A stretch of DNA of 64,000 bases from Chlamydiota bacterium (GTDB taxonomy: Bacteria; Chlamydiota; Chlamydiia; Chlamydiales; Parachlamydiaceae): assembly GCA_013287905.1 (NCBI GenBank), contig JABDCW010000003.1:8921-72920 (forward strand), in the 5' to 3' direction. The position numbers and the translations under genes are program-made. Under the pieces are notes generated by a model. The model was given only the letters and a program-made list of their open reading frames with translations. It searched no databases and was not told the DNA's origin. Of the stretch, positions 2,042 to 62,777 are shown piece by piece; position 1 is the first letter of the stretch; each line of letters begins with the position of its first letter.

Positions 2042-2089
2042 TATACCGAACGTGATTCAAAAATTGGTTTTTGAACCACCTTCGGTATA
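2042..2089. mobile_element. 48-bp miniature derivative (termini only) of the 165-bp TATACCGAA-terminated element
   Basis: The sequence tataccgaacgtgattcaaaaattggtttttgaaccaccttcggtata matches both ends of the elements at 8925-9089 and 50914-51078 but lacks their internal ~115 bp. Confidence 0.7.
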
Positions 2090-2188
2090 TGAATTCAATG
2101 GAAATGGTGTGCTACCAGAAAAAGAAAAGAATAGCTGAAAAAATAATAAATGTAAATCCGCGGATATCATTATTCGAATAGAACTGCA

Positions 2189-2217
2189 TTGCACAGATTT
2201 CTGTGTTTCTGTATAAT
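2189..2217 (+). promoter_or_regulatory. sigma-70-like promoter with palindromic operator for the TA operon
   Basis: TTGCAC (2189-2194), a 17-nt spacer, then TATAAT (2212-2217), 20 nt upstream of the antitoxin ATG. The palindrome CACAGAtttCTGTG (2191-2204) lies in the spacer. Confidence 0.55.
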
Positions 2218-2237
2218 GGAATCATGGAGGAAAGTAT

Positions 2238-2483
2238 ATGACTAATTCACATAAATCCCGCTTAACATTAGACATGGATTCCGAAGAGCATGCTTATTTA
2301 AAGATGGCTTGTGCTAAACTCGGAATCTCTATGCGACAGTTCATGCTTCTTGCCACTTTTGAGAAGATGGAGAAAATTGAAGATGATTGGTTAGCTGAAA
2401 AAGCGCATGAAACTTTAAGACGAATTGCCGCAGGCGAAGAGAAAACACTTTCATGGAAAAAGGCAAGAGAGCATCTATTGTGA
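2238..2483 (+). CDS. type II antitoxin (ribbon-helix-helix / RelB-ParD-like)
   Basis: 81-aa ORF with a GGAGGA RBS. Its N-terminal region SRLTLDMDSEEHAYLKMACAKLGISMRQFM looks RHH-like. Its stop overlaps the start of a RelE/ParE-like ORF (GTGA). Confidence 0.75.
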   Translation: MTNSHKSRLTLDMDSEEHAYLKMACAKLGISMRQFMLLATFEKMEKIEDDWLAEKAHETLRRIAAGEEKTLSWKKAREHLL

Positions 2484-2740
2484 AATACGAAGTGGAAATC
2501 ACGGAAAGTGCTGGAAAATCCCTGGAAAAAATCCCAAAAAGAGATCGACTTAAAATTTTAGAGAAGATTGATACATTAGAACAAGATCCCGTTCCAGCGG
2601 GAAGTATAAAGCTAAAAGGTTATGGGGAAGCTTTATACCGCATTCGCTCCGGAGATTATCGAATTGTCTATTCTATAAAACAAGACGTGCTCATCGTACT
2701 GATTGTTGAGATCGGTCATAGAAGAGAAATCTATCGCTAA
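2480..2740 (+). CDS. RelE/ParE-family toxin
   Basis: VKYEVEITESAGKSLEKIPK...LYRIRSGDYRIVYSIKQDVLIVLIVEIGHRREIY is the typical RelE/StbE pattern. I prefer the GTG at 2480 (4-nt overlap with the antitoxin stop) over the ATG at 2453. Confidence 0.8.
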   Translation: MKYEVEITESAGKSLEKIPKRDRLKILEKIDTLEQDPVPAGSIKLKGYGEALYRIRSGDYRIVYSIKQDVLIVLIVEIGHRREIYR

Positions 2741-2770
2741 CTTTTTCCCATCCATGTAATCAGTTCTGTT

Positions 2771-3026
2771 GAGGCTGTGAAAAATGAACGATCAACGGGG
2801 GTCTGTCGCCGCTTCCGCGGCTTTTACTGTTGGCGTTGATACCCCAGGCTAACGCCTGGGGCTACATGCTGCTGCCGCTCCGCGGCTGGAAGCCCAATAC
2901 TGCAAGCATGGCCGTGAAACGGCCAAAGCATGTAGCCCCAGGCGTTAGCCTGGGGTATGAATGCCAATAAGAACAGCCGCGGAAGCGGCGACAGATACTC
3001 GCGAATCCTTCATTTTGCACAGCCTC
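2771..3026. repeat. GC-rich long palindromic element (copy 1)
   Basis: Near-perfect inverted repeat. It starts gaggctgtgaaaaatgaa...tctgtcgccgcttccgcggc...ccccaggctaacgcctggggctacatgc. The right arm mirrors this as gcatgtagccccaggcgttagcctgggg...gccgcggaagcggcgacaga...ttcattttgcacagcctc. The 193-bp core (2802-2994) recurs at 4759-4951. Confidence 0.9.
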
Positions 3027-60783: not shown

Positions 60784-60805
60784 AACCTCAGATTTTGAAC
60801 AGACT

Positions 60806-61687
60806 CTAAAGAGCAAATTGCGCTTCAAGACACTCAGCCAAACCAAGCAGCTCCCGGGATTGTAAATTAAGCGATTGCAAGGCTTGACGATACTCTTTTA
60901 ATTCATTTACAAACATCTCAAAAGCTAGGTCAACCCCCAGGAAATTGACGATGTTGATTTTACGACCATTGATTTCATCCTGTTCAAGATCATTAAAATC
61001 ATCTGCAATTTGAAAAGCCATTCCAAATTTCAATGCTGCATGTTTTACTTTAGGCAGCTCACCCGGGTGTCCTCCTCCAAAAAGCCAACCAAAAACTAAA
61101 GACACCTCAAACAGGGAAACGGTTTTTTTTTGAATGATTTCCTGCAATACCGCAATGGATAATTCTGGTGGAAAAATGTCTAAATATTGACCGCCTGTCG
61201 TCCCAAAAACGCCTGTATTCCTTGCAGCATTGTCCAAGGCTAAAGCTCCCAAATAGTATCGGTCAATCCCATCAGGAACGACTGCGGGATCCATTTTAAA
61301 GGCGTTTTCTGCAATGCGCGCATTTCCTTCGGAAATCAGAGCATAGCTTACAAGAAGGGCTGTTGTTTCGCCAAAAACCTTATGGAGAGAGGGTTTATTG
61401 CGCCGCATATCATCATTATCCATGCAGGGCAGATCGTCGGCAATTAAAGAAGCTGTATGCAAAAACTCTATCGAAAGAGCTGCCGAAGAAACGTCGGCCT
61501 TGCGTCCCAGGGCATCTGCAACCATAAAAACAAGGGCCGGACGAACCCGCTTTCCTCCATTCATCAGGGCATATTCGCAAGCTTCACGCAATTTTCCCTG
61601 CCCGCCAAATGCAGACAAACTTTTAACAATTTCTTTTTCGGCCTGAAGCTGGTATTTTTTTAAAATATCGGAAAATGATTGGATCAT
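60806..61687 (-). CDS. polyprenyl (farnesyl/geranylgeranyl) diphosphate synthase
   Basis: The first Asp-rich motif is LIADDLPCMDNDDMRR and the second is QIADDFND. The ATG at 61687 overlaps the upstream stop (ATGA). Confidence 0.85.
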   Translation of the reverse strand: MIQSFSDILKKYQLQAEKEIVKSLSAFGGQGKLREACEYALMNGGKRVRPALVFMVADALGRKADVSSAALSIEFLHTASLIADDLPCMDNDDMRRNKPSLHKVFGETTALLVSYALISEGNARIAENAFKMDPAVVPDGIDRYYLGALALDNAARNTGVFGTTGGQYLDIFPPELSIAVLQEIIQKKTVSLFEVSLVFGWLFGGGHPGELPKVKHAALKFGMAFQIADDFNDLEQDEINGRKINIVNFLGVDLAFEMFVNELKEYRQALQSLNLQSRELLGLAECLEAQFAL

Positions 61688-62373
61688 GAGAGCCCTCGCG
61701 ACACACGGATTACAGATTTTGAAGGAATAAAACCGCTTAAGGACTGCAAGGGATAACACTGAACGTGACTTCCAATTAAAGTTCCCGGGTTTACGACGCA
61801 ATTACAACCAATTTGCGTATGATCGCCAAAGATGGAACCAAATTTTTTTAGACCAGTTTTAATATGTTGCTGCATATAAGAAACATTCACTTCACAATGA
61901 TCCAGGCGAAGATTGGCACATATAGTACCTGCCCCCAAATTCACATGGTTTCCTAAAATTGAATCGCCGACATAAGCAAAATGGGGCGCTTTGGCATCAT
62001 TTAAAAAAATAGAATTTTTGACTTCGGAGTCATGGCCGATTACACAGCCGTTTCCTGTAATGACATTACCACGAATATAGGCGCCATGACGAATTGTGCA
62101 GTCTTTTCCAATAAAACAGGGCCCTTTGATATAAGCTCCGGGTTCTATCACTGTTCCCTTGCCAATAGAAATTAAATGAGGATCGACTAGATGGGCGTTT
62201 TGCGGAACATCTGTTTCAATGTTGCCCAAACGCAATGATCCGAGGTATTGGGAAATTTTATTCAACGCCTCCCAAACATACTTTTGATCATCGAAAATTG
62301 AAAAATGAGGAAATGTCGCCAGATCAAAAAAGTAACTTGCATGTAACTCAATTTTCAATTGTTCTTTATTCAT
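61684..62373 (-). CDS. left-handed beta-helix (hexapeptide-repeat) acyl/acetyltransferase, GlmU-C-terminal-like
   Basis: Hexapeptide repeats run through IGKGTVIEPGAYIKGPCFIGKDCTIRHGAYIRGNVITGNGCVIGHDSEVKNSIF. There is no nucleotidyltransferase domain. Confidence 0.75.
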   Translation of the reverse strand: MNKEQLKIELHASYFFDLATFPHFSIFDDQKYVWEALNKISQYLGSLRLGNIETDVPQNAHLVDPHLISIGKGTVIEPGAYIKGPCFIGKDCTIRHGAYIRGNVITGNGCVIGHDSEVKNSIFLNDAKAPHFAYVGDSILGNHVNLGAGTICANLRLDHCEVNVSYMQQHIKTGLKKFGSIFGDHTQIGCNCVVNPGTLIGSHVQCYPLQSLSGFIPSKSVIRVSRGLS

Positions 62374-62501
62374 TCCGATATTTTCTCTGTTTGAGAAGTT
62401 TTTTACAAGTTTTTTCCCATTGATTTTTTACAACATTCGGGTTGATAAGGAATAATGTTTTATATATATGATTTTTCTTCTTCTTTAGAGGGTGTGAATC
62501 T

Positions 62502-62637
62502 GTTCATAAGGGAGGCTGATTCTCCTATGATTTCCTGTTGTTCATAACATGTTTATGGATCGTTCATAACCACCCATTTATAGACATTTTACGGTTATGA
62601 ACAAAACCATCGACACACTTATTGACAGGTTATGAAC
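62502..62637. promoter_or_regulatory. array of five GTTCATAAC / GTTATGAAC 9-mers (iteron-like)
   Basis: gttcataa at 62502, gttcataac at 62540 and 62562, then gttatgaac at 62594 and 62629. That is three copies in one orientation followed by two in the other, 130-265 nt upstream of the 62373 start. Confidence 0.45.
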
Positions 62638-62663
62638 AATTGCTGGTATGGAAGAAATAAAGA

Positions 62664-62777
62664 ACAATAAGGACAATAGAGACAATAAGGACACCAATTA
62701 GGGACACTAACGACATTTAAGGATTGGTCGTTAATGTCCCTAATTGGTGTCCTTATTGTCTCTATTGTCCTTATTGT
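62664..62777. repeat. hairpin repeat, ACAATAAGG-unit family
   Basis: The 51-nt arms are acaataaggacaatagagacaataaggacaccaattagggacactaacgac / gtcgttaatgtccctaattggtgtccttattgtctctattgtccttattgt. It lies 19 nt downstream of the peptidase stop. Confidence 0.9.

Follow-up and report, generated by a model that had tools for sequence, protein, structure and literature searches.

Nested palindromic repeats in the intergenic DNA of a Parachlamydiaceae genome: a candidate guild of non-autonomous mobile elements

Why should most longer gaps between genes in a chlamydial genome hold a long palindrome, and why should such palindromes lie inside one another? The window analyzed here, a 64-kb stretch of a Parachlamydiaceae genome, contains 20 inverted repeats with arms of ≥20 nt and loops of ≤400 nt, all 20 within the 12.8% of the DNA that is intergenic, against a mean of 0.03 in dinucleotide shuffles. 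Enrichment between genes was a check proposed in the initial annotation of this DNA, which had also placed a hairpin in almost every longer intergenic region. By our own count from the gene map and folds, 14 of the 17 intergenic regions of ≥200 nt carry one, and each inverted repeat that had been described is present. The elements total 3,735 nt (~45% of the window's intergenic DNA), and DNA folding of eight tested hairpins gave z = −6.8 to −17.5.

The palindromes are copied, propagating DNA, as had been suspected, rather than products of chance. Whole elements recur with their loops and non-palindromic tails at 85 to 97% identity within unrelated flanks, indicating recent duplication; identical loops, tails, and mismatch patterns occur at distant loci, and descent among copies at different loci is largely demonstrated. 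The CACAAAG-octamer element at 8394 to 8513 (hairpin 8398 to 8500, then a short tail), which occupies a convergent spacer, is 85% identical across arms, loop, and tail to 57304 to 57422, within an element at 57304 to 57434 (hairpin 57308 to 57409, then a ~25-nt tail) whose hairpin, compared with that at 8398, shows a compensatory change from A-T to G-C. Long-form copies of the TATACCGAA hairpin are 92 to 96% identical over 165 nt; one, with a ~103-nt internal hairpin module, lies at 8924 to 9090 and another, inverted, at 50914 to 51078. The short form at 2046 to 2092 may have arisen from the long form by a central deletion between TTTTTGA direct repeats. The CACAGAG-unit element at 19514 to 19702, with long AT-rich outer arms and a flanking 13-nt direct repeat (CAGGAGGGCTATA), has an inverted copy at 53498 to 53656, which directly adjoins the stop codon that ends a gene on the − strand (53657 to 54880). 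A repeated palindrome between two Imm53 genes (35627 to 35705) has a copy in locus L154. Truncated copies also exist: the array at 35161, previously taken for a solo arm, is present but belongs to a CGCAGAG-nonamer hairpin element reduced to a truncated left half (35132 to 35195, + strand), which is complete in L158 (8210 to 8327). Finally, the family is found in a relative at a site that is not orthologous.

No consistent target-site feature or target-site duplication (TSD) was found across the element families; TA stands at each end of the TATACCGAA elements, which would fit a TA duplication. By our own reading of asymmetric elements, two pairs lie on the same strand and two on opposite strands, and this lack of orientation bias counts against IS608-type single-strand insertion, which is expected to produce one. 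Mismatches between arms (34 G·T versus 36 A·C) reveal no RNA-type wobble bias (G·U over A·C) on any strand, which argues that the palindromes are DNA-level rather than RNA-level structures. The other assemblies found, all of the same strain, yielded no pair of filled and empty sites. Those assemblies break or collapse at the repeats.

The initial annotation described nine sequence-unrelated families built by a single rule, with tandem 6- to 9-nt units in the arms. The claim of unrelatedness fails. Five of the listed items (CACAAAGG, CACAGAGG, CGCAAAGG/CGCAGAGG, the 58441 unit, and the 35161 array) have a common C-R-C-A-R-A-G (CRCARAG) core, most families with this core share the outer end (A)TTYAAC...GTTRAA, and chimeric arms between them occur in L125 and at 17573; "without shared sequence" is thus too strong, since the main families form one superfamily. 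Recurrence at distant loci holds for these main families but not for the hairpins at 62664 and 17901, singletons in all sequence searched: a ACAATAAGG-nonamer hairpin of 136 nt (62653 to 62788; 92% self-complementary; z = −17.5) and a GGCACG-hexamer hairpin with the pyrimidine-rich arm first (17900 to 17988), the latter identified by Tandem Repeats Finder (TRF), periodicity, and DNA folding. The same three methods support a CACAAAG-octamer hairpin with TTAAAC...GTTTAA ends (29626 to 29704). A CCACAGAR-unit hairpin (58441 to 58520) with a conserved ~25-nt tail fills a convergent spacer (58441 to 58546), and a AACGATGAT-unit hairpin with TCAAC...GTTGA ends (3905 to 4008; z = −16.9) belongs to a family also present in L113.

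Tandem units are significant in about two-thirds of the hairpins and marginal or absent in the rest. TRF detected arm arrays of period 6, 8, or 9, and local periodicity was significant against shuffles and coding segments (P ≤ 0.02) at 8398, 29626, 17573, 29192, 17963, 19728, 26157, 62653, 26083, and 29131 and in both solo arrays. It was marginal at 3905 and, by an ungapped measure, at 19514, 53498, and 58451, although TRF nonetheless picked up the arrays at 3905 and 53498. In the units the 7-nt core is conserved and the 8th position is free, being mismatched between arms in 35 to 68% of hairpins; this pattern would be compatible with a protein that reads phased units. Outer units are better preserved than inner ones, and private variants are only weakly shared by the two arms of a hairpin (0.60 versus 0.53 identity, units 3 and 4). 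Arm arrays vary in unit number, also between arms of one hairpin (e.g., 4 versus 7 units in L097), which suggests slippage, and runs of identical adjacent units occur in L097, L163, and L110. Arrays stand singly, in pairs that begin with the purine-rich arm (40 seeds), or in "inside-out" pairs (3 seeds); roughly half are inverted pairs.

Nor is the construction rule universal: tandem units are missing from no fewer than five further hairpin families, among them the TATACCGAA family (2046, 8924, and 50914), the hairpin at 35627, a loop core described below, and two composites that contain GTAG-tagged REP doublets (REPINs, at 2842 to 2955 and 4798 to 4910) absent from the earlier list. The first composite (2771 to 3026), a palindrome with 116-nt arms and a match to Rfam Acido-Lenti-1, encloses head-to-head GTAG REPs at 2842 to 2865 (−) and 2932 to 2955 (+). 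The second (4684 to 5019) has three layers (4684/5019, 4753/4956, and 4791/4917), the innermost being a GTAG-REP doublet at 4798 to 4821 (−) and 4887 to 4910 (+).

Nesting of one element in the loop of another, by contrast, was confirmed. A GGACAATGG-type outer hairpin (26083 to 26303) surrounds a GATC-hexamer hairpin (26157 to 26242), and the nest of 29192 within 29131 is likewise real. Of 23 element instances scored by hand, 13 are free-standing, at least 9 lie in loops, and at most 1 lies in an arm, an excess of loop events over a uniform-insertion null (P < 3e-4; P ~ 0.02 if only 6 are independent). This supports loops either as favored landing places or as the only sites where insertion leaves the composite still propagating. 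A second GATC-hexamer hairpin (19723 to 19870), "inside-out" relative to that at 26157 to 26242, lies within an outer palindrome (CAGGAGGGCTATAAGCCAAG...) at 19703 to 19890, and at 17538 to 17901 an outer palindrome with 19-nt arms encloses a CGCAGAG-octamer hairpin (17573 to 17843) around a double-hairpin core (~17612 to 17755). In the composite at 29131 to 29592, GGACAAT arms enclose CGCAAAG arms (29192 to 29515), which contain an AACGAT array in the left arm only (29257 to 29296; one arm of a hairpin found whole in L113) and a core (~29300 to 29445); a tight GGACAAT hairpin (29538 to 29592) follows. The two cores, already noted as conserved, are a true repeat (17612 to 17755 and 29300 to 29445; ~82% identical) in differing surroundings, directly within CGCAGAG arms at 17573 and within AACGAT arms in L113. 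GGACAAT arms in turn hold a GATC hairpin in one place (26083) and a CGCAAAG composite in another (29131). The elements are therefore modular: outer arms and inner modules exchange, and composites then multiply as units. We considered four local insertions as the origin of the 29131 to 29592 nest and rejected them, since the whole four-layer, ~440-nt composite recurs at 92 to 95% identity in L125 (9118 to 9556) and L113 (4634 to 5133), where the flanks of the 437-nt composite are unrelated. In L118 an element is nested in itself, and L142 and L161 follow the same nesting grammar as the window.

Beyond the window, the AATTCAAC-(CGCAAAGN)n hairpin appears on more than 116 metagenome contigs of 34 to 70% GC, among them one from Verrucomicrobiota and one from Polyangiaceae. 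The same 22-nt end is present in three phyla, and one motif family extends, unexpectedly, to at least two further bacterial phyla. Across phyla, conservation in the CGCAAAG family is confined to the arms and does not reach the loops; the core and the AATTCAAC end persist throughout this GC range, and where host GC is high the element is richer in AT than the genome. Other tandem-unit families on metagenome contigs are nested likewise. The TTGGTCA heptamer, in L110 and L143, equals the STRR2 unit reportedly described by Mazel et al. 1990. No such elements occur in 22-kb samples from Parachlamydia acanthamoebae and Protochlamydia phocaeensis, and from the sequences compared the distribution appears lineage-specific and non-orthologous.

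We consider it fairly likely that the window hosts a guild of non-autonomous, palindrome-forming mobile repeats of foldback/REPIN-like MITE type, resident in this genome. This is argued by copying with loops and tails, truncated copies, abundance, and intergenic location; by modularity, self-nesting, excess loop insertions, and lineage-specific distribution; and by DNA-level palindromes with no consistent TSD. The conserved core with its free 8th position, better-kept outer units, and unequal arms fit as well, as do single, paired, and inside-out arrays, which parallel REP monomers and head-to-head and tail-to-tail dimers, and the co-resident GTAG-REP doublets, REPs with RAYT/TIRYT being documented in the PVC superphylum (PMC3733652). 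The elements are probably mobilized in trans, as hairpin DNA, by an enzyme that would be encoded elsewhere in the genome; a HUH/Y1 transposase of the RAYT/TIRYT kind, working on extruded or single-stranded hairpin DNA without target duplications, is a tentative candidate. The REP/RAYT idea raised earlier gains from the two doublets, but the GTAG/CGTC tag, which RAYTs need, is missing from the tandem-unit hairpins, and a search for Y1/HUH or other transposase domains found none in 40 window proteins, 10 small proteins/ORFs (taken from loci that probably belong to this genome or a related one), or 115 neighbors of metagenome copies. The missing filled/empty pair and the weakly shared private variants also count against mobile repeats. 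The tandem units would represent repeats of a short recognition motif, a conserved 7-nt core with a free spacer, growing and shrinking by slippage. Nesting could arise because apical loops are single-stranded and accessible for insertion, and only loop insertion may keep both elements hairpin competent and able to propagate further. Any effect on termination or mRNA ends would be a by-product of position.

Alternatively, the palindromes could be host-selected cis-elements (bidirectional terminators, 3'-end mRNA stabilizers, or arrays bound by a conserved RNA- or DNA-binding protein that would read phased 7-nt cores), maintained by selection and spread only occasionally through recombination. 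Position speaks for this: elements lie mostly directly 3' of genes, 0 to 25 nt past stop codons, they occupy six of the seven convergent spacers in the window (our own tally), and 37 classifiable metagenome loci divide into 14 convergent, 19 tandem, and 4 divergent contexts. The core with its free spacer also suits selection, analogous cyanobacterial STRR hairpins have been proposed as transcript stabilizers or terminators (PMC2670836), and conservation of arms but not loops from 34 to 70% GC fits functional constraint as well as a shared transposase. However, the earlier suggestion of terminators between convergent genes stands for position only, since U-tract or T-tail terminators were not above chance, and there is no G·U over A·C bias. 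Stems of 40 to 60 bp are far longer than a terminator requires and would be open to cleavage by RNase III. Copying of loops and tails at 85 to 97% identity, absence from the sampled related chlamydiae, elements in divergent (promoter) regions (3905, 29131 to 29704, and 57304), and the many binding proteins that many motifs would require further make host selection unlikely.

Two other origins compete with trans-mobilized hairpins. Classical MITEs moved by DDE transposases would be internally deleted insertion sequences, one per family, with multiple subterminal transposase-binding repeats in the terminal inverted repeats (as in Tn7, Mu, IS21, and eukaryotic Foldback/Galileo elements), transposing as double-stranded DNA by cut-and-paste or copy-paste. 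The better-conserved termini, the multi-copy families of 80 to 450 nt, the 40-to-3 polarity, the TA ends of TATACCGAA, and the 13-nt direct repeat around 19514 are all in keeping with this. We nevertheless regard it as improbable, since other families lack a consistent TSD, no arm pair encloses an ORF in ~560 kb of fetched loci, neighbors include no transposase, and at least five to six motif classes would require equally many transposases in a small symbiont genome. In situ generation without any mobile element, in which stalled forks or breaks would turn slippage arrays into palindromes (through template switching or snap-back synthesis) and arm-to-arm correction keeps complementarity, could account for unit-number variation, runs of identical units (L097, L163, and L110), some families in both topologies, the single-copy hairpins at 62653 and 17900, and private variants common to both arms. 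It is very improbable given that loops, tails, and mismatch patterns are identical between elements at distant loci, the same 22-nt end in three phyla, and the 40-to-3 polarity, whereas template switching should yield both forms.

Among known systems, Foldback (FB) transposons of Drosophila, Galileo, and similar elements have long terminal inverted repeats of tandem short sub-repeats, variable in copy number and best conserved at their outer ends, and the complete element folds back on itself as a hairpin; they belong to eukaryotes, reach kilobase size, and have transposases that are known or suspected. The resemblance is architectural, by analogy, and implies no evolutionary link. Elhai et al. 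2008 (Genome Res 18:1484; cited in PMC3116915) reportedly described small dispersed repeats (SDR) of Nostoc punctiforme as mobile and as lying inside each other in intergenic DNA rich in repeats. They resemble our elements as very small nested intergenic repeats but differ in being units of 21 to 27 nt. Bacterial MITEs (Correia/CREE, Nezha, RPE, and others) are likewise non-autonomous, multi-copy, intergenic, inverted-repeat-ended, and 80 to 450 nt, but their arms are not tandem arrays, and the defined TSD and cognate IS of typical MITEs were not found here. REP/REPIN elements are mobilized by RAYTs (Y1/HUH), and TIRs by TIRYTs, and occur in the PVC superphylum (PMC3733652, PMC3116915). Like them, our elements are extragenic palindromes 3' of genes, present as monomers, head-to-head or tail-to-tail dimers, and clusters without target duplication, and the window's GTAG-REP doublets nest as the tandem-unit hairpins do. 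Those hairpins differ in lacking the tag, in having a tandem array rather than a 20- to 40-nt palindrome as monomer, and in the lack of a RAYT in the DNA examined. Architecturally, the tandem-unit hairpins appear equivalent to those of cyanobacterial STRRs (short tandemly repeated repetitive sequences), intergenic arrays of ~7-bp units of unknown function and origin, whose opposed arrays can fold into hairpins near gene 3' ends (PMC2670836); a title cited in PMC4046671 places STRRs inside the gene for RNase P RNA of heterocyst-forming cyanobacteria. Both comprise several unrelated-looking families of intergenic short-unit arrays with hairpins near gene 3' ends. Here, however, the host is a chlamydia, and related copies are carried by Verrucomicrobiota and Myxococcota. 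Instead of 7 nt the units measure 6, 8, or 9 nt, and the elements form long, near-perfect palindromes bounded by defined ends (AATTCAAC...GTTGAATT), multi-layer nested and copied as whole units. The TAACTGA heptamer repeats found in Beggiatoaceae, Cyanobacteria, and Bacteroidetes are also an intergenic short-unit array family, mixed with other unit families and common to distant phyla although no mechanism of transfer is evident (PMC4679880). They are direct repeats, with one inverted case, mostly just upstream of start codons (PMC4679880), whereas about half of our arrays are inverted pairs, mostly past stop codons. The window thus resembles known types of intergenic repeat (REP/REPIN, MITE, and STRR); what was unexpected is one motif family that spans phyla.

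Every hairpin reported from the sequence alone was recovered by a repeat search of the window, and a uniform inverted-repeat detector (arms of at least 20 nt, loops of at most 400 nt) placed 20 of 20 inverted repeats in the 12.8% of the window outside open reading frames (ORFs), against 0.03 per dinucleotide shuffle. In our own tally, drawn from the gene map and the folds, one or more hairpins are present in 14 of the 17 spacers of at least 200 nt, and the summed element length is 3,735 nt, or 45% of intergenic DNA. Eight hairpins tested as single-stranded DNA folds gave z values of -6.8 to -17.5. 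TRF reported arm arrays with a period of 6, 8 or 9, and the proposed unit periodicity held up: a local periodicity score was higher than in shuffled arms and in random coding segments (P≤0.02) for the arms of CACAAAG, CGCAAAG/CGCAGAG, GATC, GGCACG, ACAAT and GGACAAT type and for both solo arrays. Independent Logan assemblies from two sequencing runs are 100% identical to the window and break or collapse exactly at the repeats, which are thus real and present elsewhere in the genome too. Short-read assemblies of the same strain (L005 and L006; L-numbers denote other fetched loci and contigs, mostly metagenomic, used for comparison) terminate at repeats at window positions 26259, 29168/29561 and 35140. 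The absence of 29169-29560 from L005 was judged to be a k=31 collapse over a 31-nt direct repeat, joining 29168 to 29561 with the loss of 392 nt, and not a polymorphism.

The initial annotation described at least nine sequence-unrelated families obeying one construction rule; the hairpins themselves stand, but about five motif classes remain. A core, CRCARAG, is common to CACAAAGG, CACAGAGG, CGCAAAGG/CGCAGAGG and the items at 58441 and 35161, and unit types are mixed inside single arms at 17573 and in L125, which together reduce the nine families to that number. On the outside, most CRCARAG items also end in TTYAAC...GTTRAA (TTCAACRCARAGGCRC was matched 11 times with at most two mismatches, against 0.24 expected). 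The hairpins at 62653 and 17900 are single copies in all sequence searched. Nor does one rule cover all the elements, since at least five further families of long palindromic repeats lack tandem units: the TATACCGAA family at 2046, 8924 and 50914, the composites at 2771-3026 and 4684-5019, the hairpin at 35627 and the double-hairpin core found in loops. The supposed solo arm at 35161 corresponds to the left half of a hairpin found intact in L158, and L113 has the full hairpin to which the AACGAT array at 29257 belongs as left arm. The TATACCGAAGGTGGTTCAAAAATTGG... hairpin family, which the initial annotation lacked, comes in a short form of 47 nt and a long form of 165 nt, the latter with an internal hairpin module (window 2046-2092, 8924-9090 and 50914-51078; L154 1678-1843 and 4116-4280; L158 8134-8184). 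The idea that the "empty" TATACCGAA hairpin at 2046 marks a pre-insertion site was set aside, as deletion between TTTTTGA repeats explains it equally well. "Inside-out" forms, in which the element ends abut at the apex and the pyrimidine-rich arm comes first, look as if the usual form had been circularly permuted or joined tail to tail as a dimer (window 19723-19870, compared with 26157-26242; L087, about 4600-4700; L095, about 2950-3060).

When the spacers were searched by BLAST in the window and in metagenome loci of similar GC, copies of whole elements emerged. The elements at 8394-8513 and 57304-57422 are 85% identical, loop and tail included, with the mismatches of their arms in common and a single compensatory change from A-T to G-C, while those at 19514 and 53498 are inverted copies of about 93% identity. 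Five copies of the TATACCGAA long form are 92-96% identical across 165 nt, and the 437-nt nest at 29130-29566 recurs whole between unrelated flanks in L125 (94.8%) and L113 (92%). A Parachlamydiaceae relative (L201, SdhA 81% identical) has a CGCAAAG-type hairpin elsewhere, downstream of sdhB, and a Waddliaceae metagenome-assembled genome (MAG; L002) carries an ACGAAGRAA hairpin; no hairpins with tandem-unit arms occur in 22-kb samples of Parachlamydia acanthamoebae and Protochlamydia phocaeensis or in a 12-kb sample of another relative (L206). Whole-element copies, the non-orthologous site in L201 and absence from the sampled relatives are the signature of lineage-specific proliferating repeats. 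The search for orthologous sites yielded no pair of filled and empty sites: a scan with the 448-aa neighbor protein returned no relatives, that with Mrp returned only those at 57-61% identity, and relatives of SdhA have different neighbors. The CAATGTCATYAASTTAAARAATARTTTATTAT module of the composite palindrome (4684-4739) is repeated in the Waddliaceae MAG at 323-356 and 405-438; some repeat modules are therefore common to different chlamydial families.

Nesting follows a modular pattern. L113 contains a full Russian doll: its outermost arms are of GGACAAT type, the next layer inwards consists of AATTCAAC-(GCAAAGNC)n arms and the third of TCAAC-(GATNNTAAC)n arms, around a 145-nt core of two hairpins. 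The same core sits directly within the CGCAGAG arms at 17573. GGACAAT arms hold a GATC hairpin at 26083, a CGCAAAG composite at 29131 and nothing at 29538-29592, and such differing contents of the same arms indicate that modules are combined in various ways. The claim that nesting exceeds random placement was borne out by a uniform-insertion simulation, a rough test scored by hand on 23 element instances (13 free-standing, at least nine in loops, at most one in an arm): at least nine loop insertions among 23 gave P<3e-4 and six gave P~0.02, with the nests not all independent events because composites multiply as units. Insertion into an arm would destroy the hairpin and end its spread, so element-level selection could mimic apex targeting. 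Self-nesting at the level of elements is seen in L118, where one CGCAAAG element lies within another. Self-nesting at the level of units, with a mini-palindrome repeatedly entering its own apex, was rejected because mirrored units differ at the spacer in 35-68% of cases, inner units are more degenerate and not younger, and arms can be unequal in unit number. The same nesting grammar is found on non-chlamydial contigs (L118 2330-2660, L142 230-600, L161 2560-3260, L110, L143 and L155), where the CGCAAAG element is self-nested up to three or four layers and also lies inside AGGAATTC-octamer arms. Solo arrays of other units adjoin CGCAAAG elements on these contigs, among them the TTGGTCA heptamer, which we take to match the cyanobacterial STRR2 unit.

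A metagenome scan with AATTCAACRCARAGGCRCRAAG matched more than 116 contigs, with GC of 0.34 to 0.70 among the matches listed. The two contigs placed taxonomically belong to Verrucomicrobiota (L133, 58% GC, by GlgB) and Polyangiaceae (L089, 68% GC, by GyrA; here gyrA is followed by the hairpin at a distance of 25 nt). For 84 seed arms, the complementary array lay downstream (purine-rich arm first) in 40 and upstream ("inside-out") in 3, with none within 500 nt in 32. In the 40 hairpins, the 7-nt core is conserved and the 8th position is a free purine, with a partner mismatch in 35-68%. Pairing of their arms weakens from the outer units towards units 3-4, a gradient partly biased by the anchored search; window hairpins, found unanchored, have 10.2% mismatches in the outer half and 16.3% in the inner half (P=0.04). 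Other genomes have their own unit families as hairpins and nests (AATTACG, GCCRATA, AGGAATTC and GTCCTTGGC), and in L142 and L161 the CGCAAAG element is nested inside other unit families. PLSDB plasmids gave no match, and a 16-nt scan of viral sequences gave mostly chance matches, with real arrays on 4 contigs. The literature searched held no account of such elements in Chlamydiae, nor of a CGCAAAG octamer hairpin anywhere, which is weak evidence given its incomplete coverage; searching by literal repeat sequence returned nothing relevant.

The window has a GC content of 41% and encodes, among others, succinate dehydrogenase, a biotin operon and DUF648. SdhA of the window shares 81% identity with proteins of Parachlamydiaceae MAGs and 74-76% with its Parachlamydia and Protochlamydia counterparts, and the Mrp-like ATPase finds relatives only in Waddliaceae and Parachlamydiales MAGs (57-61% identity). 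Judged by these protein affinities, the host is an environmental chlamydia and not a cyanobacterium; the Parachlamydiaceae and Parachlamydiales relatives of SdhA and Mrp ruled out a cyanobacterial origin, which had been a first impression from Nostoc-like STRRs. Between sdhC and sdhA lies a 619-nt gap (30560-31178) with an antisense 170-aa ORF that has no Pfam match, and no long hairpin; in relatives this distance is 13-38 nt and SdhC has 307-339 aa, compared with 274 aa in the window. Two peptide deformylase paralogues of 188 aa each (4027-4593 and 6014-6580) are separated by 1.4 kb, and the 336-nt composite palindrome comes after the first. A repeat hairpin stands between two genes for Imm53 immunity proteins (35249-35596 and 35875-36186); both genes are downstream of an ORF of 1,786 aa and of small ORFs that lack Pfam matches, and the whole region (35249-42570) looks like a polymorphic-toxin/immunity locus. 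A ParE-family toxin gene (2453-2740) adjoins the composite palindrome at 2771-3026, and the small ORF upstream of it is probably the antitoxin.

The elements multiply as whole units, nest as modules, change in array length, are symmetric at the DNA level and lack target-site duplications (TSDs), and we regard them as probably non-autonomous palindromic repeats mobilized in trans. The likeliest single option for the mobilizing enzyme, itself a tentative one, would be an HUH/Y1 protein acting on hairpin DNA; a DDE enzyme would be a more doubtful choice. Tandem units could then be arrays of a recognition motif, lengthened and shortened by slippage, and loop insertion may result from single-stranded accessibility combined with retained hairpin competence. 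No transposase or HUH domain was detected in 40 window proteins or in 10 small ORFs from loci that probably belong to this genome or a related one, and none of these 50 proteins, from the 64-kb window and about 60 kb of such loci, matched Y1_Tnp. The 115 neighbors of metagenome copies are ordinary housekeeping genes, with no transposase and no enriched family among them, and no transposase family is enriched beside 80 copies.

Retention of the hairpins by the host as terminators or binding arrays is unlikely. Intrinsic (Rho-independent) terminators comprise a short GC-rich stem followed by a U-tract; the suggestion that the hairpins terminate transcription found no backing, with 19 terminator-like sites against 19.4 expected and large hairpins without T-tails. 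Structured RNA was also rejected: the arm mismatches (34 G.T, 36 A.C and 60 other) carry no RNA signature specific to one strand, and Rfam matches consist of Acido-Lenti-1 on REPs and spurious miRNA precursors, with no Rfam family covering the tandem-unit hairpins. Classical DDE miniature inverted-repeat elements (MITEs) share the inverted-repeat ends seen here, and the TA at both ends of the TATACCGAA family is compatible with TA target duplication, but the consistent flanking direct repeat of a fixed-length TSD was not found; no arm pair in the fetched loci encloses an ORF as a cognate full-length insertion sequence would, and we consider such an origin quite unlikely. The only clear direct repeat seen, the 13-nt CAGGAGGGCTATA (19499-19511 and 19704-19716), flanks the 189-nt CACAGAG element at 19514-19702 and is also the left arm of the adjacent outer palindrome. 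Two arms from one hairpin resemble each other only slightly more than arms taken from different hairpins do (0.60 vs 0.53; permutation P=4e-4), and unit number can be unequal between them, as in L097; formation in situ by slippage with template switching is nevertheless very improbable beside the multiplication of whole elements.

To our knowledge, dense intergenic repeats are not a known trait of environmental chlamydiae. Here they account for almost half the spacer DNA and break up assemblies from short reads; if mobile, they mark genome plasticity in an intracellular symbiont and offer a ready supply of terminators, mRNA ends and recombination sites. A bolder proposal, which we hold with little confidence, is that tandem-unit hairpins form an unrecognized cross-phylum foldback class, with one sequence-tolerant machinery for phased motifs or hairpin apices that inserts there. 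If true, one machinery would explain unit arrays, polarity, solo and inverted forms and Russian-doll nesting. The class would so far span Chlamydiota, Verrucomicrobiota and Myxococcota and is possibly continuous with STRRs and Beggiatoa heptamers. The window elements would count as a new category only if a shared machinery that generates them were demonstrated.

The REP/RAYT mechanism suggested by the initial annotation is relevant to part of the window: GTAG-REP doublets are present, but the tandem-unit hairpins have no GTAG or CGTC tag. A RAYT (Y1/HUH) gene is usually flanked by its REPs. The two Acido-Lenti-1 matches are GTAGCCCCAGGCGTKAGCCTGGGG, a GTAG-tagged REP arranged as head-to-head doublets, or REPINs, at 2842(-)/2932(+) (2842-2955) and 4798(-)/4887(+) (4798-4910), each enclosed by additional palindromic layers. 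Acido-Lenti-1 may therefore be, at least partly, a REP/REPIN repeat rather than a small RNA gene, which bears on the annotation of that "sRNA". The PVC superphylum, Chlamydiales included, is documented to have GTAG REPs together with tyrosine transposases of the RAYT or TIRYT kind (PMC3733652), and REPINs are considered RAYT-mobilized (PMC3116915). The window REPINs, read alongside this record, make it plausible that this genome has, or once had, an active system for transposing hairpin DNA. Unlike REPs, which are imperfect palindromes of 20-40 nt tagged GTAG (or CGTC), the tandem-unit hairpins begin with (A)TTYAAC or otherwise; only the GTAG family forms inverted REP doublets here, and the occurrence of tandem arrays alone or as both kinds of inverted pair parallels REP/REPIN dimer forms by analogy. 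IS200/IS605 and PATE elements have a tnpA and/or tnpB gene, or differing sub-terminal hairpins and a fixed 4-5-nt 5' target. The elements described here are single symmetric hairpins with short tails; their flanks share no tetranucleotide and show no TSD, no orientation bias was seen in the four pairs that could be scored, and neither tnpA nor tnpB was found in the window.

Integron attC sites are imperfect hairpins whose foot is formed by R'' (RYYYAAC) and R' (GTTRRRY) boxes; they also have L''/L' boxes, in which some bases are extrahelical, and their cassettes form same-orientation arrays near intI. ATTCAAC...GTTGAAT fits R''/R' in the AATTCAAC subfamily (8398, 57308 and 29192) but not in the other families, and by our own count AAC is retained in 37 of 40 partner arms. 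An attC identity was rejected on genomic context: the hairpins adjoin housekeeping genes (sdh, bio and gyrA among others) in all orientations, with no integrase found and no cassette array. The construction of the arms also parallels that of eukaryotic Foldback elements. Like cyanobacterial STRR hairpins, the window elements are intergenic tandem arrays of short units (about 7 bp in STRRs, 6-9 nt here) in several families that pair as hairpins; taxon and unit sequences differ, and the window elements are thus an analogue of STRRs and not members by descent. STRR hairpins, with tandem short-unit arms, several families and positions near gene ends, are still of unknown function (PMC2670836). TAACTGA heptamers are common to Beggiatoaceae, Cyanobacteria and Bacteroidetes (PMC4679880), a cross-phylum spread of one unit family that the CGCAAAG-type hairpin parallels. 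An octamer hairpin in three phyla (34-70% GC) raises the same question as STRRs and Beggiatoa TAACTGA, namely, what makes and spreads short-unit arrays, and its defined ends, uniform polarity, nesting and co-resident REPINs give a sharper handle on it than either.
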